Source of the DNA: Escherichia coli
GTDB taxonomy: Bacteria; Pseudomonadota; Gammaproteobacteria; Enterobacterales; Enterobacteriaceae
Length of the DNA: 64,000 bases
Reading direction: 5' to 3' (one strand)
Assembly: GCF_024223415.1 (NCBI RefSeq)
Contig: NZ_CP100500.1
The translations under genes and the position numbers were made by a program. Numbering within the stretch: the stretch's first letter is position 1; each line of letters opens with the position of its first letter. Of this stretch, positions 656 through 58,700 are shown piece by piece. The notes under the pieces were generated by a model that was not told where the DNA came from, did no database searches, and was given only the letters and a program-made list of their open reading frames with translations.

Positions 656-1353
656 TGCAGGATATCCGGCAGGAAACACTGAATGAATGCACCCGTGCGG
701 AGCAGTCGGCCAGCGTGGTGCTCTGGGAAATCGATCTGACAGAGGTCGGTGGCGAACGTTATTTTTTCTGTAATGAGCAGAACGAAAAAGGTGAGCCGGT
801 CACCTGGCAGGAGCGGCAGTATCAGCCGTATCCCATTCAGGGGAGTGGTTTTGAACTGAATGGCAAAGGCACCAGTACGCGCCCCACGCTGACGGTTTCT
901 AACCTGTACGGTATGGTCACCGGTATGGTGGAAGATATGCAGAGTCTGGTCGGCGGAACGGTGGTCCGGCGTAAAGTTTATGCCCGTTTTCTGGATGCGG
1001 TGAACTTCGTCAACGGAAACAGTGACGCCGATCCGGAGCAGGAGGTTATCAGCCGCTGGCGCATCGAGCAGTGCAGTGATTTGACAGCGGTCAGCGCGAC
1101 CTTTGTACTGGCCACGCCGACGGAAACGGACGGCGCTGTTTTTCCGGGACGTATTATGCTGGCCAACACCTGCACCTGGACCTATCGCGGTGACGAGTGC
1201 GGTTATAGCGGTCCGGCGGTCGCGGATGAATATGATCAGCCGACGTCCGATATCACGAAGGATAAATGCAGCAAATGCCTGAGCGGCTGTAAGTTTCGCA
1301 ATAACGTCGGCAACTTTGGCGGCTTCCTTTCCATTCACAAACTTTCGCAGTAA
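655..1353 (+). CDS. Minor tail protein L
   Basis: 232 aa as in lambda L; conserved Cys-rich C-terminus (CTWTYRGDECGY, CSKCLSGC); start overlaps M stop. Confidence 0.9.
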   Translation: MQDIRQETLNECTRAEQSASVVLWEIDLTEVGGERYFFCNEQNEKGEPVTWQERQYQPYPIQGSGFELNGKGTSTRPTLTVSNLYGMVTGMVEDMQSLVGGTVVRRKVYARFLDAVNFVNGNSDADPEQEVISRWRIEQCSDLTAVSATFVLATPTETDGAVFPGRIMLANTCTWTYRGDECGYSGPAVADEYDQPTSDITKDKCSKCLSGCKFRNNVGNFGGFLSIHKLSQ

Positions 1354-1357
1354 TTCC

Positions 1358-2101
1358 ATGACAGAGACAGAATCAGCGATTCTGGCGCACGCCCGGCGAT
1401 GTGCGCCAGCGGAGTCGTGCGGCTTCGTGGTGAGAGCGCCGGAGGGGGAAAGATATTTCCCCTGCGTGAATATCTCCGGTGAGCCGGAGGCGTATTTCCG
1501 GATGTCGCCGGAGGACTGGCTGCAGGCAGAGATGCAGGGTGAGATTGTGGCGCTGGTCCACAGTCACCCCGGTGGTCTGCCCTGGCTGAGTGAGGCCGAC
1601 CGGCGGCTGCAGGTGCAGAGTGATTTGCCGTGGTGGCTGGTCTGCCGGGGGGCGATTCACAAGTTCCGCTGTGTGCCGCATCTCACCGGGCGGTGCTTTG
1701 AGCACGGGGTGACGGACTGTTACACGCTGTTCCGGGATGCTTACCATCTGGCGGGAATTGAGATGCCGGATTTTCATCGCGGGGATGACTGGTGGCGTAA
1801 CGGTCAGAATCTCTATCTTGACAATATGGAGGCGACTGGTTTTTACCGTGTCGCACTGACAGAGGCGCAGCCCGGCGACGTGCTGCTGTGCTGTTTTGGT
1901 TCATCGGTGCCGAATCATGCCGCCATTTACTGCGGCGACGGCGGGCTGCTGCACCATATTCCTGAACAACTGAGCAAACGAGAGAGGTATACCGACAAAT
2001 GGCAGCGACGCACACACTCCCTCTGGCGTCACCGGGCATGGCACGCATCTGCCTTTACGGGGATTTGCAACGATTTGGCCGCCGCATCGACCTTCGTGTG
2101 A
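1358..2101 (+). CDS. Tail assembly protein K (MPN/JAB plus NlpC/P60-like)
   Basis: Frame open 1316-2101; ATG at 1358 lies 4 nt after the L stop (MTETESAILAHARR...); HSHP motif and Cys/His residues typical of the lambda K family. Start and exact length uncertain. Confidence 0.8.
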   Translation: MTETESAILAHARRCAPAESCGFVVRAPEGERYFPCVNISGEPEAYFRMSPEDWLQAEMQGEIVALVHSHPGGLPWLSEADRRLQVQSDLPWWLVCRGAIHKFRCVPHLTGRCFEHGVTDCYTLFRDAYHLAGIEMPDFHRGDDWWRNGQNLYLDNMEATGFYRVALTEAQPGDVLLCCFGSSVPNHAAIYCGDGGLLHHIPEQLSKRERYTDKWQRRTHSLWRHRAWHASAFTGICNDLAAASTFV

Positions 2102-2646
2102 AAACGGGAGCCGAAGCCATCCGGGCGCTGGCCACGCAGCTCCCTGCGTTTCGTCAGAAACTGAGCGACGGCTGGTATCAGGTGCGTATTGCCGGGCGTG
2201 ATACAGGCGAAAACGAATTATCAGCCCGTCTTAATGAACCGCTGGCAAATGGTGCCGTGATCCACATCGTGCCGCGTCTGGCGGGAGCCAAACGTGGTGG
2301 TGTGTTTCAGGCAGTGCTGGGCGCGGCGCTGATTGCGGTGGCATGGTGGAACCCTGCAGGCTGGCTGGGGGCTGCGGCTTTATCGGGCATGTATGCGGCA
2401 GGGGCCAGTATGGTGCTCGGTGGTGTGGCGCAGATGCTGGCACCGAAAGCCAGAATGCCCGGAGTATCAGCCACGGATAACGGCAAACAGAACACCTATT
2501 TCTCCTCACTGGAAAACATGGTTGCCCAGGGGAATGCTCTGCCCGTTCTGTACGGTGAAATGCGCGTGGGGTCACGGGTAATTTCGCAGGAGATCAGCAC
2601 AGCGGATGAGGGGGATGGCGTCCGGGTTGTGGTGATTGGTCGCTGA
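1999..2646 (+). CDS. Tail assembly protein I
   Basis: 215 aa; N-terminus MAATHTLPLASPGMARICLYGD and C-terminus matching the lambda I family; overlaps the K 3' end as in lambda. Confidence 0.85.
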   Translation: MAATHTLPLASPGMARICLYGDLQRFGRRIDLRVKTGAEAIRALATQLPAFRQKLSDGWYQVRIAGRDTGENELSARLNEPLANGAVIHIVPRLAGAKRGGVFQAVLGAALIAVAWWNPAGWLGAAALSGMYAAGASMVLGGVAQMLAPKARMPGVSATDNGKQNTYFSSLENMVAQGNALPVLYGEMRVGSRVISQEISTADEGDGVRVVVIGR

Positions 2647-2706
2647 TGAAAAACGTTTTATGTGAAACCGCCTCCGGGCGGTTTTGTCGTTTATGGAGCG
2701 TGAGGA

Positions 2707-5700
2707 ATGGGTAAAGGCAGCAGTAAGGGGCATACCCCGCGCGAAGCGAAGGACAACCTGAAGTCCACGCAGTTGCTGAGTGTGATCGATGTCATCAGCG
2801 AAGGGCCGATACAAGGACCGGTGGATGGATTAAAAAGCGTGCTGCTGAACGGTACGCCGGTGCTGGACAGTGAGGGGAATACCAATATATCCGGCGTCAC
2901 GGTGGTATTCCGGGCCGGTGAGCAGGAGCAGACGCCGCCGGAGGGATTTGAATCCTCCGGCTCCGAGACGGTGCTGGGTACGGAAGTGAAGTACGACACG
3001 CCGATTACCCGGACCATCACGTCGGCAAACATCGACCGTCTGCGCCTGACCTTCGGTGTGCAGGCACTGGTGGAAACCACCTCAAAGGGGGACCGGAATC
3101 CGTCGGAAGTCCGCCTGCTGGTTCAGATACAGCGTAACGGTCGCTGGTTAACGGAAAAAGACATCACCATTAAGGGAAAAACCACTTCACAGTATCTGGC
3201 TTCGGTGGTGGTGGATAACCTGCCGCCGCGCCCGTTCAGTATCCGGATGCGCAGGATGACACCGGACAGCACCACAGACCAGCTGCAGAACAAAACGCTC
3301 TGGTCGTCATACACCGAAATCATCGATGTGAAACAGTGCTACCCGAACACGGCACTGGTCGGTGTGCAGGTGGATTCGGAGGAGTTCGGCAGCCAGCAGG
3401 TGAGCCGTAATTATCATTTTCGCGGGCGCATTCTGCAGGTGCCGTCGAACTATAACCCGCAGACGCGGCAATACAGCGGTATCTGGGACGGAACGTTTAA
3501 ACCGGCATACAGCGATAACCCGGCCTGGTGTCTGTGGGATATGCTGACCCACCCGCGCTACGGCATGGGGAAACGTGTTGGCGCAGCGGATGTGGACAAA
3601 TGGGCGCTGTATGTCATCGGCCAGTACTGCGACCAGTCGGTGCCGGACGGCTCTGGTGGCACGGAGCCGCGCATCACCTGTAATGCCTGGCTGACCAGGC
3701 AGCGTAAGGCGTGGGATGTGCTCAGTGATTTCTGCTCGGCGATGCGCTGTATGCCGGTATGGAACGGGCAGACGCTGACGTTCGTGCAGGACCGACCGTC
3801 GGATAAGGTGTGGACCTATAACCGCAGTAATGTGGTGATGCCGGATGATGGCGCGCCGTTCCGCTACAGCTTCAGCGCCCTGAAGGACCGCCATAATGCC
3901 GTTGAGGTGAACTGGAGTGACCCGGATAACGGCCAGGAGACGGCGACAGAGCTTGTGGAGGACACGCAGGCCATTGCCCGTTACGGTCGTAACGTCACGA
4001 AGATGGATGCCTTTGGCTGTACCAGCCGGGGGCAGGCACACCGCGCCGGGCTGTGGCTGATTAAAACAGAACTGCTGGAGACGCAGACCGTGGATTTCAG
4101 CGTGGGTGCTGAAGGGCTTCGCCATGTACCGGGCGATGTCATTGAAATCTGTGATGATGACTATGCCGGTATCAGCACCGGTGGTCGTGTGCTGGCGGTG
4201 AACAGCCAGACCCGGACGCTGACGCTCGACCGTGAAATCACGCTGCCATCCTCCGGTACCACGCTGATAAGTCTGGTTGACGGAAGTGGCAATCCGGTCA
4301 GCGTGGAGGTTCAGTCCGTCACCGACGGCGTGAAGGTAAAAGTGAGCCGGGTTCCTGACGGCGTTGCCGAGTACAGCGTGTGGGGGCTGAAGCTGCCGAC
4401 GCTGCGCCAGCGCCTGTTCCGCTGCGTGAGTATCCGTGAGAACGACGACGGCACGTATGCCATCACTGCCGTGCAGCATGTACCGGAAAAAGAGGCCATC
4501 GTGGATAACGGGGCGCACTTTGACGGCGACCAGAGCGGAACGGTGAATGGTGTCACGCCGCCAGCGGTGCAGCACCTGACCGCAGAAGTCACCGCAGACA
4601 GCGGGGAATATCAGGTGCTGGCGCGCTGGGACACGCCGAAGGTGGTGAAGGGCGTGAGCTTCCTGCTTCGCCTGACCGTGGCCGCGGATGACGGCAGTGA
4701 GCGGCTGGTCAGCACGGCCCGGACGACGGAAACCACATACCGCTTCAGGCAGCTGGCGCCGGGGAACTACAGGCTGACAGTCCGGGCAGTAAATTCCCGG
4801 GGGCAGCAGGGAGACCCGGCGTCGGTATCGTTCCGGATTGCCGCACCGGCAGCGCCGTCGCGGATTGAGCTGACGCCGGGCTATTTTCAGATAACCGCCA
4901 CGCCGCATCTTGCCGTTTATGATCCGACGGTACAGTTTGAGTTCTGGTTTTCGGAAAAGCGGATTACCGATATCAGGCAGGTTGAAACCACAGCCCGTTA
5001 TCTTGGTACCGGAAGTCAGTGGCTTGTCTCCGGCCAGAATATTAAACCTGGCCATGATTATTACTTTTATATCCGCAGTGTTAACACTGTCGGTAAATCG
5101 GCATTCGTGGAGGCAGTCGGTCGGGCGAGTAATGATCCTGCCGGTTACCTTAATTTTTTCAGGGGGGCGATAAATAAAACGCATCTGGGACGGGAGATCA
5201 ATGAACGCATTGATGCCTCTGCACTGCGCACTGAAGTTGAGCAACTGGAGAATGAGATTAACCGCGAAATGACGCAGCTGGAGAAAGATGTGAGGCAGCG
5301 TGCGGAGCGTGATATCGCCGAGGTGACGAAAAAAATCACGGCGTCTGAAAACAGCATAACGGAACTGGTGGCGAAAAAGAGCGGTGAACAGTCGCTGGCC
5401 ATTGCGAAAGTCGACAGGAAAGTTGACAGCGTGAGCAGTGAAATCCGGCAGACAGTGAGCAGGAGCACGGAGGAGAACAGCCGACAGATAGCGCAGGTCA
5501 GGCAGTATGTTGATGATAAAAGTGCGCAAATAAGTACTGTTGTGGCGAAAAAGAGCGCTGAACAGTCAATGGCCATTGCGGAAGTTGACAGAAAAGTTGA
5601 CAGGATGGGAAGCGAAATCCGGCAGACAGTAAGCAGGAGCACGGAGGAGAACAGCCGACAGATAGCGCAGATCAGACAGTATGTTGATGATAAGGGAAGT

Positions 5701-6216
5701 CAGATCAAACAGAGCACGGATAAAAAACTGGGATCCTGGAATGCCAGCATTGAGCAGATACAGAAAGTTCAGGAGGACACGCGCCGGAACCTGAACAGCA
5801 TGTGGGCTGTGAAGCTGCAGCAGACACGGGATGGACGTCTCTATATTGCAGGTATTGGTGCCGGAATCGAAAATACGTCTGACGGAATTCAGAGTCAGAT
5901 CCTGATGCAGGCAGATCGTATTGCGATGATTAACCCGGAAAATGGCAATACAACACCTTTGTTTGTGGCTCAGGGTGATCAGCTGTTCATGAATGATGTT
6001 TTCATGAAAAAACTGACCGTGGATTTTGCCAGAGTGACGGGAGATATCCGGTCAGATAATTTTCATTCCGGTAGTCCGGGGTGGCGTTTATCAAGAAACG
6101 GCAGCCTTGAAATTAACTCAGGAAGGCCCGGCGCAGGCCGCCTGTTTTTCAATGGCGAGCGAATCGACGTATATGACGATAACAATGTGTTAAGAGTACG
6201 ACTGGGGAGACTGTAA
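2707..6216 (+). CDS. Host specificity / central tail fiber protein J, with divergent C-terminal part
   Basis: 1169 aa; SD GAGG before ATG 2707; conserved J blocks incl. [11 protein letters not shown] and [14 protein letters not shown]; long coiled-coil repeat region and short C-terminus that differ from lambda J as I remember it. Confidence 0.9.
5368..5715 (+). repeat. Tandem ~174-bp (58 aa) near-identical repeat inside the J coiled-coil region
   Basis: Peptide [51 protein letters not shown] repeated with few substitutions; visible at nucleotide level. Confidence 0.8.
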
Positions 6217-6476
6217 TGTTCGGAGTCCGGGTATGGCGCAAAGGGCGCCTTGTGACACATGAAATAAACCCAACAGGGGTGCTGGATGTGATCACTGAAG
6301 GGACGGGGCAGCGTTCTTATACTCCTTTGCAGGGCTGGCGTCTGGAAGTCTGTTCACCGGCCATTCTGATTAACGGTCAGGGAAGTCATACCAGTGCCAG
6401 TGTATCCGGCTGGACAGTGCACTATGCCAACACAAGCTGGCTAAGACCCGTGCTGGTCATGATAAGGGGGATCTGA
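6216..6476 (+). CDS. Hypothetical protein (86 aa), translationally coupled to J
   Basis: ATG overlaps J stop (TAATG); no signal peptide; no motif I recognise. Confidence 0.45.
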   Translation: MFGVRVWRKGRLVTHEINPTGVLDVITEGTGQRSYTPLQGWRLEVCSPAILINGQGSHTSASVSGWTVHYANTSWLRPVLVMIRGI

Positions 6477-7138
6477 TGTTTGCACTTAAATTAACTGATG
6501 AGCGGGGGAGAGAATGGATATCACCTGTTGCGCCGCCACTGAACCTTGTGCGCCGTTTTCATTTCACACTGAGTGCGCGTGATGCGGTGATGCAGTTTAT
6601 CGACACCGGGGTGCCGACGAATTATCGTTGCGTGATTTTTATTAAACAGATAAGCGGTAATCAGTCCTTCCATGGTGAAATGGTTCAGCTTAACGGTACC
6701 TGGCAGTATGACATTTTCAGCGCTGGTACAGGGCAGGAGCCGGGCATGGAACAGGACAGCACATATGTTGTTTATGTTTTTGCCAACATGGTGAATGTAT
6801 GGCCGCAATGGGGAATACAGTTGTGCGACAGTCATGGCAGGGTGGTCTGGAACACGGAAATGCTGCCACTGGAAGTAAAAATGACGCGAATATGGGAAAA
6901 GGATGTACCGATCAGTGTGGGACATGATGTGGCCGTAATGCCGGGGTGTACCCAGTGGACGACAGTTCAGGAAGGGGAGAGTTATTACTGGTATACCGCC
7001 AGTTTTAATGCCAGAAACTCACAGTTATGGCGTCAGTCAACTTTTGCTGAAGATAACGTAGCGGCGCCCAATGATAATTCAGGTGTTGTTAATAACCTCT
7101 GTTATTACATAAATGCAGAAATTTATGATGCGTACTGA
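6476..7138 (+). CDS. Hypothetical protein (220 aa), coupled to the preceding ORF; possible tail-tip or receptor-recognition accessory
   Basis: ATG overlaps upstream stop (TGATG); Trp/Tyr-rich sequence; no signal peptide; sits where lambda has lom. Confidence 0.5.
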   Translation: MFALKLTDERGREWISPVAPPLNLVRRFHFTLSARDAVMQFIDTGVPTNYRCVIFIKQISGNQSFHGEMVQLNGTWQYDIFSAGTGQEPGMEQDSTYVVYVFANMVNVWPQWGIQLCDSHGRVVWNTEMLPLEVKMTRIWEKDVPISVGHDVAVMPGCTQWTTVQEGESYYWYTASFNARNSQLWRQSTFAEDNVAAPNDNSGVVNNLCYYINAEIYDAY

Positions 7139-7159: not shown

Positions 7160-7405
7160 ATGAAAATAATCGTCTGCACTTTTTTGCTGTTTCTTGTATC
7201 AGGTTGCGCGGGGTACCGTTCAGTTACGGAGAGAGTCCGGTGCACCGGTGTGCTGAGTCCCGGGGTTTTACAGCGAGCTTATACGGTAGATCTTACAGGG
7301 AAAATAGAAACGAAAAGCGGCACTGTGTATAAAGTATCAGCTCCGAGATTTTATGGTCAGTGGGTGAGTGAAGATATGTTTACGAAAGTTTCGTGCGTGA
7401 AGTAA
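7160..7405 (+). CDS. Small lipoprotein (81 aa), possibly Cor-like superinfection exclusion protein
   Basis: Signal peptide with lipobox LVSGC; own SD (GAGG) and downstream terminator; size and post-J position resemble cor of FhuA-dependent lambdoid phages (from memory, not sequence-verified). Confidence 0.45.
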   Translation: MKIIVCTFLLFLVSGCAGYRSVTERVRCTGVLSPGVLQRAYTVDLTGKIETKSGTVYKVSAPRFYGQWVSEDMFTKVSCVK

Positions 7406-7477: not shown

Positions 7478-9292
7478 ATGGCGGCTGTAAAAATTTCAGG
7501 CGTGCTGAGGGACGGAACCGGAAAACCGGTACCGGGATGCATTATTGAGCTGAAAGCGAAGAGAACCAGCGAGACAGTCATCGCCACGACAGTGGCTTAT
7601 GGCATGCCGGAAGAGACGGGGAGTTACAGTATGGATGTGGAGCCAGGAATATACAGGGTGACACTCAATACAGAAGGTTACCGTCCTTCGTATGTGGGAG
7701 ATATCGTGGTCAGGGAGGATTCTTCACCGGGAACACTGAATAAATTTCTGATGGAGATGGAAGATGCTCCTTATTATCCGAAGGCGTTGTCAGAGCTGGA
7801 GGCTGTGGTGCAGTCCATACTGCACAGAGCAGAGTCCGCGGCATCTGAGGCGGAGGAAGCCCGGAAACGAGCAGCATCTGCCCGGGGACCACGAGGAGAG
7901 AAAGGGGATACCGGCGCTCGTGGTGAAAGAGGCATTACCGGGCCACAGGGGCCAAAAGGTGAAACAGGAGCACGTGGCCCGGCAGGACCACAGGGACCAA
8001 AAGGTGAAACAGGTGAACGCGGTCCGGCAGGTCCACAGGGACTAAAGGGCGATACAGGTGAACGCGGCCCGGCAGGTCCACAGGGACCAAAGGGTGAAAC
8101 AGGTGCACGCGGCCCGGCAGGTCCACAGGGAGCAAAGGGCGAAACAGGTGAACGCGGCCCGGCAGGTCCACAGGGAGCAAAGGGCGAAACAGGTGCACGT
8201 GGTCCGGAAGGCCCTCAGGGTCTGAAGGGAGAAAAGGGTGAGCGAGGAGAAAAAGGCCCTAAGGGGGATAAAGGAGATCCGGGAGGTCCACAGGGACCAA
8301 AGGGGGATACAGGTGAACGCGGCCCGGCAGGTCCACAGGGATCAAAGGGCGATACAGGTGAACGTGGCCCGGCAGGTCCTCAGGGACCAAAGGGGGATAC
8401 AGGTGAACGTGGCCCGGAAGGTCCACAGGGAGCAAAGGGTGAAACAGGTGAACGCGGCCCGGCAGGACCACAGGGACCAAAAGGTGAAACAGGTGAACGC
8501 GGTCCGACAGGTCCACAGGGAGCAAAAGGTGAAACAGGAGCACGCGGTCCGGCAGGTCCTCAGGGACCAAGAGGAGAGTCAGCCCGTGGACAACTGCTGA
8601 ATGGTGATCTGAACCGACTGGGACGAGTGACCGATCAGGGTGATTATTATCAGCCATCAGACAGTGGGGCTACACGAGAAAATAATTATCCGATTCAGAG
8701 AGCGGGTTATCTTCAGGTAAGAGTTGGTGCATGGGGATATTGCCAGCATGAATATACAACCTGGAACCCACCACGAAAGTTCGTAAGAACTGTTACTGGT
8801 AATTTTACCGGTAATGGCCCCTGGTCTGAATGGAAAGAGCTGGGAGCCCAGGGGGAGCGTGGTCCACAGGGACCAAAAGGTGAAACAGGTGCACGCGGTC
8901 CGGCAGGTCCACAGGGACTAAAGGGCGAAACAGGTGCACGTGGCCTGGCAGGTCCTCGGGGGCCAAGAGGGTATACAGGTGAACGCGGCCCGGCAGGTCC
9001 ACAGGGGCCAAGAGGAGAAGCGGGGCGGCCAGCGAGCGTCGGAAGTGTTTATTCCGTGGGGTCTTATGTTCTGGGGATCATAGAACGAAATCATGAGATA
9101 ACAAATACCCGTCAAATACCCGGGTATCGTATCAGACAGGCCGTTATTGTGTCGTCGTCATCGGATAAACTTACAGATATCCGCTTTTTATTTGGCAATC
9201 CTATGCTTGGTACATGGATGTTATGCACAACTAACATGACGGTGAATAATATCAGTGGGACGATTTGGGGCCTGTTTCAGAGAATACTGTGA
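7478..9292 (+). CDS. Side tail fiber protein (Stf-like) with collagen-like Gly-X-Y repeats
   Basis: N-terminus [29 protein letters not shown] close to the lambda Stf N-terminus; about 240 aa of GPxGxxGxxG repeats plus a second shorter block. Confidence 0.85.
7853..8580 (+). repeat. Collagen-like Gly-X-Y triplet repeat array within stf (second block about 8828-9010)
   Basis: Repeated 9-nt and 27-nt units encoding G-P-Q-G-x-K-G-E-T; also produces spurious antisense ORFs. Confidence 0.85.
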
Positions 9293-50839: not shown

Positions 50840-50950
50840 TAAAAAGAATTCAGAATCAGGCCGGAGTGCTAAATACTCCGTAAACACGGTCGTACATCCA
50901 GCCGGTAGCCTGATTCCTTGCATTGAGTGATGTACGGAGTTTATAGAGCA

Positions 50951-57430: not shown

Positions 57431-58207
57431 ATGTCCGAAACAAAAAATGAACTTGAAGACCTGCTGGAAAAAGCAGCAACCGAACCGGCGCACCGCCCGG
57501 CCTTTTTCCGTACTCTACTGGAATCCACCGTCTGGGTGCCTGGTACGGCGGCGCAGGGCGAGGCTGTGGTTGAAGATAGCGCGCTTGATTTACAGCACTG
57601 GGAAAAAGAAGACGGCACCAGCGTCATTCCTTTTTTTACCTCGTTAGAAGCACTTCAACAGGCGGTTGAAGACGAACAGGCATTTGTCGTAATGCCCGTT
57701 CGCACATTGTTTGAGATGACCCTTGGCGAAACGCTCTTCCTTAATGCCAAACTGCCAACCGGTAAAGAATTTATGCCGCGTGAAATCAGTTTGTTGATTG
57801 GTGAAGAAGGGAATCCGCTGAGTAGCCAGGAAGTACTGGAAGGCGGTGAATCGCTGATATTATCGGAAGTCGCAGAGCCGCCAGCACAAATGATTGATTC
57901 ACTCACCACCTTATTTAAAACTATTAAGCCGGTGAAGCGTGCTTTTATATGTTCAATTAAAGAGAACGAAGAGGCACAGCCTAATTTACTTATTGGCATT
58001 GAAGCCGATGGTGATATCGAAGAAATTATTCAGGCGGCGGGAAGTGTAGCAACCGATACATTACCTGGCGATGAACCAATCGATATTTGCCAGGTGAAAA
58101 AAGGGGAAAAAGGAATTAGCCATTTTATTACCGAACATATTGCGCCATTCTATGAACGTCGTTGGGGTGGTTTTTTGCGTAACTTTAAACAGAACCGGAT
58201 AATCTAA
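57431..58207 (+). CDS. sseB: SseB (enhances serine sensitivity)
   Basis: 258 aa from MSETKNELEDLLEKAATEP; synteny. Confidence 0.85.
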   Translation: MSETKNELEDLLEKAATEPAHRPAFFRTLLESTVWVPGTAAQGEAVVEDSALDLQHWEKEDGTSVIPFFTSLEALQQAVEDEQAFVVMPVRTLFEMTLGETLFLNAKLPTGKEFMPREISLLIGEEGNPLSSQEVLEGGESLILSEVAEPPAQMIDSLTTLFKTIKPVKRAFICSIKENEEAQPNLLIGIEADGDIEEIIQAAGSVATDTLPGDEPIDICQVKKGEKGISHFITEHIAPFYERRWGGFLRNFKQNRII

Positions 58208-58419
58208 AATATGCCGCCCCAAAGGGCGGCATTCGGGCTTACCTGCTGCTCTGAAGGTTGTTGACCACCAGTAAATTGTTGCCGGAGAGACTCCGGTTAT
58301 TATTTACCTCGGTTAACAGCGCACCAGAAACAATAAGTACGATACAAAAGCACCGTATCTTCATTGTGCGGTCCATGCGAAGACCGCATCACGACAGCAC
58401 CACTGGCGATATTGCCGCG

Positions 58420-58700
58420 ATAGCAAGCACTGTGGGGTGCCTGCATTTACGGTCATGGAACATCCTTTCCTAAAGCCAGCGCCCGTTTGCGAGACGGCGA
58501 AAAGGGCCGTCAGGAATAATACTCTCATGTTTGAATAATTACTCTGTTTATTATCTTGACATAGTCAGGCATAAAAGAGAGTATTTCAACACTGTGGGGT
58601 GCCTGCGTTGCTCCGGCAACACAAGTCAACCTGCTGGAAAGGCCGCGAACCAGACCAGCAATAAAAAACCGCCAAATTCGGCGGTTTTTTATTTTCGGCG
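58420..58700 (+). ncRNA. ryfA: Putative small RNA locus in the sseB-sseA intergenic region (RyfA-like); boundaries and strand uncertain
   Basis: About 500-nt gap with strong terminator and internal direct repeat of cactgtggggtgcctgc (58431 and 58595); I recall RyfA mapping between sseA and sseB in K-12. Confidence 0.3.

Follow-up and report, generated by a model that had tools for sequence, protein, structure and literature searches.

The J gene and its expanded helical segment

The stretch of Escherichia coli DNA analysed here (64,000 nucleotides of contig NZ_CP100500.1, assembly GCF_024223415.1; hereafter the window) carries a prophage whose gene J, encoding the central tail fibre or tip attachment protein, was found to possess a long helical segment built partly of tandem repeats (the stalk). 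The coordinates of J and of its parts are given in Table 1. The Pfam domains FNIII-A_GpJ, Phage-tail_3, Ig_J, Ig_J_second and Phage_Tail_Tip were identified in the protein, and the hub with FNIII/Ig domains of a lambda-type gpJ was recognised through PF24801, PF13550, PF24421 and PF24489 (all E<1e-39). The best matches in the PDB were lambda gpJ (8iyk_J, E=0) and the gp33 protein of phage T1 (9l9p_S, E=6.8e-128), the latter over the whole length.

Residues 1-837 of J are ~93% identical to lambda J 1-837 (phmmer on PDB sequences and global alignment), and the alignment resumes at J 1013-1110, corresponding to lambda 842-940 (phmmer), with the result that ~175 residues stand where lambda has four (between lambda 837 and 842). 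At the DNA level (blastn) positions 1226-5189 of the window are 90.9% identical to lambda; the similarity then stops, with a weak return at 5799-6008 (68%). In lambda gpJ, residues 809-861 form the element termed AHS, a three-helix bundle under the FNIII-2 trimer (PMC11101478). Upon binding of the receptor LamB, AHS residues 809-840 shorten and 841-861 convert to beta strands, by which the FNIII domains are freed and the tip opens (PMC11101478). The extra sequence of the window J falls exactly between these two parts. The J helix occupies the position of the lambda AHS (PDB 8XCJ/8XCK, 8IYK), as the link between the FNIII-2 trimer and the central straight fibre, and its flanks are homologous, with window residues 809-837 equivalent to lambda 809-837 and 1013-1036 to lambda 842-865. 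At ~220 residues compared with 53, it is about four times longer. A reading made from the sequence alone (the sequence-only reading) had proposed an expanded segment of ~200 aa between the fibronectin-like region and the conserved WAVKLQQ block, where lambda was taken to have only a short linker; both points are borne out by the alignment, with ~220 aa of predicted helix separating the second FNIII/Ig domain from that block and an AHS of only 53 aa in lambda (PMC11101478).

The tandem duplication that the same reading had placed at 5368-5541 and 5542-5715 was recovered by two programs and is real, far beyond chance. Tandem Repeats Finder reported it at 5368-5693 (period 174, 1.9 copies, 90% matches, 0 indels, score 554), and a second repeat search found copies of 152 nt each at 5368-5519 and 5542-5693, with 91% nucleotide identity and a spacing of 174. 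Both units are in frame with J. The description of the copies as near-perfect was overstated, as the units have 46 of 58 amino acids in common (79%) and differ at 30 of 174 nucleotides, with more than half of these differences within the last 22 nt of the unit. A polar stretch of 20 residues is the same in both.

The secondary structure of the segment was predicted with an AlphaFold2 monomer model, using an alignment of 36 sequences. Helix was assigned to residues 811-824 and 826-1028, effectively one continuous helix, with a predicted local distance difference test (pLDDT) score of 83-93 over residues 840-999. The beta-rich distal part of the model is of low confidence (pLDDT <50), as would be expected when an intertwined trimer is modelled as a single chain. 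The translation is free of proline between residues 812 and 1075. Hydrophobic residues recur with a period of 3.63-3.64 residues, the Kyte-Doolittle power being 152, where 500 shuffles gave at most 115 and 36 on average. For an indicator of core residues over positions 816-1030, power was 0.03 at a period of 3.5, 3.11 at 29/8 and 1.45 at 11/3. The stalk is consequently no canonical heptad coiled coil, and the earlier description of it as heptad-rich does not hold overall, since its seam has a period of 29 residues (11+18), or 3.63 per turn. When residues 830-1036 are laid out in rows of 29 the seam stays in register, with columns 12, 15, 19 and 26 being nearly all Ile or Val and further core positions at columns 1, 22 and 29. 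Within each period an 11-residue stretch is polar where core residues would be expected, the other 18 residues being heptad-like. The 58-aa unit is a double period of exactly 16 seam turns, and the whole stalk comprises about seven 29-residue periods. The lambda bundle, in comparison, has a period of ~3.4-3.5, while the window stalk combines its period of 3.63 with 29/58-residue repeats that are polymorphic in copy number (see below).

The segment thus presents what a coiled coil should, namely a predicted helix free of breaks, along which a hydrophobic seam runs at regular spacing. Cores rich in Ile and Val favour trimers, as Harbury et al. reportedly found in 1993. Given such a core, and the C3 trimer of lambda J on either side of the segment, a parallel three-helix stalk is the natural reading. 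Together with the C3 symmetry of lambda gpJ (PMC11101478) and the AlphaFold3 trimer model of T1 gp33, this suggests that the stalk is most likely a trimeric, parallel and nearly unsupercoiled coiled coil. At 1.5 Å per residue it would measure ~33 nm, compared with ~8 nm in lambda, and each 58-aa unit would account for ~8.7 nm. The Apolipoprotein A1/A4/E family of Pfam gave a weak match (E=0.005, well short of its cutoff), which was dismissed, as only an 11-residue amphipathic periodicity is shared.

Table 1. Coordinates in the window of gene J, its parts and the genes that follow it.
Feature	Coordinates	Strand	Size or residues	Basis and remarks
Gene J (central tail fibre / tip attachment protein)	2707..6216	+	1169 aa	Intact open reading frame (ORF)
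Lambda-like proximal module (hub, FNIII/Ig domains, start of AHS helix)	2707..5189	+		blastn and protein identity to lambda
Continuous predicted alpha-helix (expanded AHS / putative coiled-coil stalk)	5137..5790	+	aa 811-1028	AlphaFold2, hydrophobic period
Two degenerate 29-residue periods	5194..5367	+	aa 830-887	Upstream of the 58-aa units in the same register; seam rows, column composition
58-aa repeat unit 1, type Aa	5368..5541	+	aa 888-945	Two 29-residue half-units
58-aa repeat unit 2, type Bb	5542..5715	+	aa 946-1003	
Counterpart of lambda J 842-865 (lower AHS helix)	5743..5814	+		phmmer, J 1013-1110 against lambda 842-940
Phage_Tail_Tip (PF09327), beta-prism of central straight fibre	5749..6126	+	aa 1015-1140	Pfam, E=2.3e-34; holds the WAVKLQQ...FMNDVF block
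T1-type C-terminal tip, ending in RVRLGRL	6016..6213	+	aa 1104-1169	Alignment to T1 gp33 C-terminus
T1 gp32-like ORF (annotated 'outer membrane protein')	6216..6476	+	86 aa	phrog_557, E=2.8e-4; position as T1 gp32
T1 gp31-like ORF ('membrane associated protein'; candidate receptor-binding or accessory protein)	6476..7138	+	220 aa	phrog_425, E=3.3e-27
Cor-like superinfection-exclusion lipoprotein	7160..7405	+	81 aa	phrog_1119, E=8.2e-7; lipobox LVSGC

Length variation and mosaicism among relatives

Among 5426 complete E. coli genomes, the stalk DNA of the window is held by only 22. About 20 chromosome records have the two-unit length seen in the window, several of these being one genome deposited repeatedly. 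F1022 has two units plus a duplication of 33 nt (11 aa, with QLENAINREMT occurring twice), and AR_0085 has three units with the same 11-aa duplication. Further homologues include one-unit forms (P0007 and P0015), three-unit forms (P0005 and P0006) and 29-aa duplications (P0001 and P0106). Measured from one conserved anchor to the other, the length classes comprise 49 (lambda), 77, 150, 153, 161, 186, 219 (window), 230, 248, 277 and 288 residues. The sequence-only reading had suggested that repeat copy number could set fibre length; related prophages do carry one, two or three units, and the length of the stalk must change with them. When the halves of the units are typed, the window reads Aa-Bb, AR_0085 Aa-Aa-Bb and P0005 Aa-Ba-Bb, with the one-unit forms being Ab. 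The hybrid units Ab and Ba indicate unequal crossing-over between units. One further homologue, P0019 (a 608-aa 'host specificity protein J' of Shigella sonnei), has the stalk and the Phage_Tail_Tip block twice in one chain, and is either a large internal duplication of J or a mis-assembled or fused gene model.

A divergent single-unit stalk (45-59% identity) was identified in 726 of the 5426 genomes (13%), with the same 29-residue register and a period of 3.635. Isolated phages with a single-unit stalk were restricted, in the phage collection searched, to PhiR40_1 and PhiR49_2 (PV340560, PV340570). In these phages, and in E. coli prophages with J of the same type, the stalk is homologous to that of the window and lies between the same flanking blocks. 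It has one unit and spans 150 aa between anchors as opposed to 219, and it is followed by a C-terminal receptor-binding domain of the lambda/O157 type (PF12421) and then lom, whereas the window has a T1-type tip. No description of copy-number polymorphism in J-like stalks was found in the literature, in which the lambda AHS and the T1 model were found.

The tail fibre of the lytic Drexlerviridae phage T1 offers a second comparison. T1 gp33 (PDB 9L9P) has a proline-free helical stalk of ~210 aa at the same place, with tandem repeats of 33 aa (three hendecads) and a period of 3.675. Its published AlphaFold3 trimer model is an extended alpha/beta fibre of ~370 Å, longer than that of lambda (PMC11945409). 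It shares with the window J the Phage_Tail_Tip block and the C-terminal tip of ~70 aa, followed by homologues of gp32, gp31 and cor. Its repeats are unrelated in sequence to those of the window, the proximal 830 aa of the window J are lambda-type and not T1-type, and no copy-number polymorphism is described in the T1 paper (PMC11945409). More distant relatives were collected by scanning 1.84 billion representative proteins in full with HMMER. Many of these share the ~70-aa tip after the conserved block, with proline-free helical runs of ~20 to 1077 aa upstream of it, and several have tandem repeats of their own (28/84, 32 or 42 aa), for which the best periods (3.5, 3.56 and 3.5) match the repeat lengths. 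On these sequence comparisons, a repeat-built stalk of variable length is general in this tail-fibre family, with lambda at the short end. Since a single-unit version is present in 13% of complete E. coli genomes, and T1 gp33 and many distant relatives have stalks of repeats that are equivalent or far longer, the expanded stalk in itself is ordinary.

Stalks of comparable design are present in the YadA/Eib trimeric autotransporter adhesins and in fibritin-type phage fibres, which are trimeric, vary in length by the number of coiled-coil repeats, and have non-heptad periods and polar core layers. The likeness to J would be one of analogy only, as there is no sequence relationship and the attachment chemistry is different.

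The distal end of the window J, on which the sequence-only reading was silent, is not that of lambda. Over its final 66 residues J aligns with the T1 gp33 C-terminus (9l9p_S 1093-1168), and also with 9ze4_N and 7z4b_EA. The alignment to lambda ends near lambda residue 940, and no counterpart of the LamB-binding domain (lambda ~980-1132) was found in J, with only short scraps of 22-33% identity past residue 1101 in the global alignment. Breakpoints in nucleotide similarity were located at 5189 against lambda, at 5022 against PhiR40_1 and at 6008 against the J gene of GF60, which is 98.5% identical up to that point and diverges in its distal modules. The same stalk is joined to two distal ends, namely the T1-type tip (window) and the PF12421 receptor-binding domain of lambda/O157 type (P0010, P0015 and GF60). 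On these breakpoints and the two distal ends, J is made up of three or more exchangeable modules: the hub with FNIII domains, the stalk with the proximal fibre, and the distal tip or receptor-binding domain. An earlier suggestion that the repeat is a likely recombination site in a mosaic tail gene stands in part, in that J is mosaic and the hybrid units show intragenic recombination in the repeats, while modules from different phages meet in the conserved blocks on either side of the stalk. In two of the related loci an insertion sequence interrupts the DNA immediately downstream of J, namely an IS21-family ISSso4 element in GF60 (L003, 5290-7597), where the side-fibre genes are truncated, and an IS66-family ISCro1 element in AR_0085 (L001, 6377-8631).

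Proposed role of the stalk and alternative explanations

We consider it probable, with good confidence, that the segment is an expanded AHS, changed in length by duplication and deletion in register, and most likely forming a trimeric coiled-coil stalk. Such a stalk would connect the beta-prism of the central straight fibre with the FNIII/Ig domains of trimeric J. It would be assembled from 29-residue periods (18 heptad-like and 11 polar-core residues), with one 58-residue double period duplicated in tandem. Each added 58-aa unit would make the fibre ~8.7 nm longer and leave its distal part unrotated relative to the tail tip, the angle being kept because 58 residues are exactly 16 seam turns. 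Unequal crossing-over or slippage between units would change the copy number, so that related prophages would differ in fibre length, and the length of the stalk would set the distance of the receptor-binding tip from the tail mouth. Stalk length might then also affect host range.

Several points weigh against this interpretation. A PDB search with the stalk alone returned zero significant matches, and the C-terminus of T1 gp33 is not resolved by cryo-electron microscopy (PMC11945409). A monomer model by AlphaFold2 can neither show the oligomeric state nor exclude bundles that fold back, and the trimeric arrangement of the expanded part is derived by comparison with lambda and T1 and from the Ile/Val-rich core. 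The polar, glycine-containing stretches KKSGEQS, DDKGSQ and RMGSE could be hinges rather than parts of a rigid coiled coil. The eleven length classes differ from the window by whole numbers of seam turns to within 0.00-0.21 turn (most within 0.10), which favours the interpretation; the classes being non-independent, this is suggestive of whole-turn quantisation of stalk length and no statistical proof of it. Finally, no phenotype is linked to copy number, and the polymorphism could be neutral.

This last possibility, of a real stalk whose length polymorphism is a functionally neutral by-product of slippage or unequal crossing-over and is tolerated only in register, without a part in reach or host range, deserves serious attention even if we consider it somewhat less than probable; as it bears on function only, it is compatible with the structural interpretation. 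Every observed indel is in register, as would be expected if only assembly-competent variants survive; relatives that share the tip have stalks of ~20 to >1000 aa, which suggests a loose constraint, and one stalk is paired with different receptor-binding ends. There is no direct evidence against neutrality; the two-unit form has lasted long enough for its units to reach 9-17% nucleotide divergence and is present in several lineages, which argues that it is at least not deleterious. A more ambitious proposal, which is speculative and in our estimation unlikely, is that the stalk is a length-tunable, register-locked rod inside the trigger element of lambda, with one-, two- and three-unit alleles being adaptations to envelope thickness (O-antigen or capsule). 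If this were true, the angle between FNIII latch and distal fibre would be kept while reach changes in steps of ~1.6, 4.3 or 8.7 nm, and stalk length would be a determinant of host range that unequal crossing-over could alter without any change in the receptor-binding module.

It is much less plausible that the repeats are docking sites for side fibres, decoration or accessory proteins, with copy number setting the number of bound partners. The surface-exposed polar stretches are well conserved, including the 20 residues shared by the units, and the prophage also encodes a side fibre with collagen repeats and two small tip-associated proteins. However, the side fibres of Ur-lambda attach to the tail tip complex through a collar domain, and not to the AHS (PMC12617516), and small proteins encoded downstream of J have been proposed to bind the C-terminal tip and not the stalk (PMC12309495, bioRxiv 10.64898/2026.04.02.716166). 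Unrelated repeats of different period at the same place across lineages also fit a spacer better than a binding site. An artefact of assembly, by which a gene truly of one unit was mis-assembled or expanded, can for practical purposes be set aside. J genes are often broken in short-read assemblies, and many homologues in the databases are fragments ending at contig edges. Against this, the 30 differences in 174 nt make the units distinguishable, and the same two-unit layout is found at 97.6-99.4% identity in ~20 further records of complete E. coli chromosomes (several of them repeat deposits of one genome), which together make such an artefact unlikely. Variants with three units and with an additional 33 nt also occur, and the reading frame of J is unbroken.

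If the segment is an expanded AHS, its interest lies in its position, as an insertion inside the part of J whose unravelling, once the receptor is bound, opens the tail tip in lambda. The natural alleles, with stalks of ~8, 22, 33 and 42 nm, form a series with which it could be asked whether the receptor signal is passed on by the helix bundle or the stalk serves only to position the tip, and the same series could show whether the reach of the fibre is of importance when hosts bear O-antigen or capsule. As the label gpJ in E. coli prophages takes in three or more exchangeable modules, a lambda-like N-terminus of J does not predict a LamB-binding end in annotation. It is otherwise an ordinary case of repeat-driven length variation in a phage fibre.

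Downstream genes and the remainder of the window

The gene order J-phrog_557-phrog_425-phrog_1119 mirrors gp33-gp32-gp31-cor of T1, which places the fibre with those of the T1/N15 type; the Cor-like gene lies on the plus strand in the window and on the opposite strand in T1. The 220-aa ORF matches T1 gp31 with 22% identity over its N-terminal half (BLASTP, E=3e-6). A protein of the gp32 type has been proposed to be a small Ig-like tip protein (PMC12309495). It has further been proposed that J-like fibres of the T1 kind are without a receptor-binding domain of their own, the receptor being set by proteins encoded downstream (PMC8594841, PMC12309495, bioRxiv 10.64898/2026.04.02.716166). By analogy, the tip of the window J probably carries separately encoded receptor-binding proteins, and the downstream genes suggest that such proteins, together with a superinfection-exclusion protein, stand in place of lom. 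The receptor of T1 is FhuA; to name FhuA as the receptor of the window prophage, from its Cor-like gene alone, would be a guess. A literature search on the PDB codes 9ZE4, 23GD, 9OIK, 7Z4B, 9WCA and 25VF returned only unrelated papers.

Two antisense ORFs inside J, at 3307-5529 (minus strand, 740 aa) and 5145-5642 (minus strand, 165 aa), were considered as genes and judged to be non-coding. Neither has a Pfam match, and lambda J contains a comparable unannotated antisense ORF of 564 aa. They are probably a by-product of the codon composition of J.

Beyond the Cor-like gene, a side tail fibre gene at 7478-9292 (plus strand) encodes 604 aa, in which an N-terminal domain of the prophage tail fibre type is combined with long collagen triple-helix repeats (six stretches of PF01391). 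The DNA of the gene, especially at 7940-8574, is internally repetitive and gives off-register self-alignment in relatives, and the gene is potentially a second repeat-built fibre of variable length in the prophage. At the end of the prophage, downstream of the tail-fibre genes, a 469-aa protein (10322-11731, plus strand) has a YadA-like membrane anchor (PF03895, E=1.2e-16), by which it is classed as a trimeric autotransporter adhesin carried as prophage cargo, possibly Eib-like. It is followed at 11792-12247 (plus strand) by a 151-aa protein with a sigma-70 region 4 helix-turn-helix. No tRNA genes were found in the window, and the right-hand junction of the prophage is therefore not at a tRNA within it. 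From 12.3 to 64 kb the window consists of E. coli core chromosome, including an rpiR-family regulator, a yfhB-like HAD gene, tadA, mltF and purL, with the GlmY small RNA at 21457-21604, an iscRS element at 50840-50949 and ryfA at 58206-58510.

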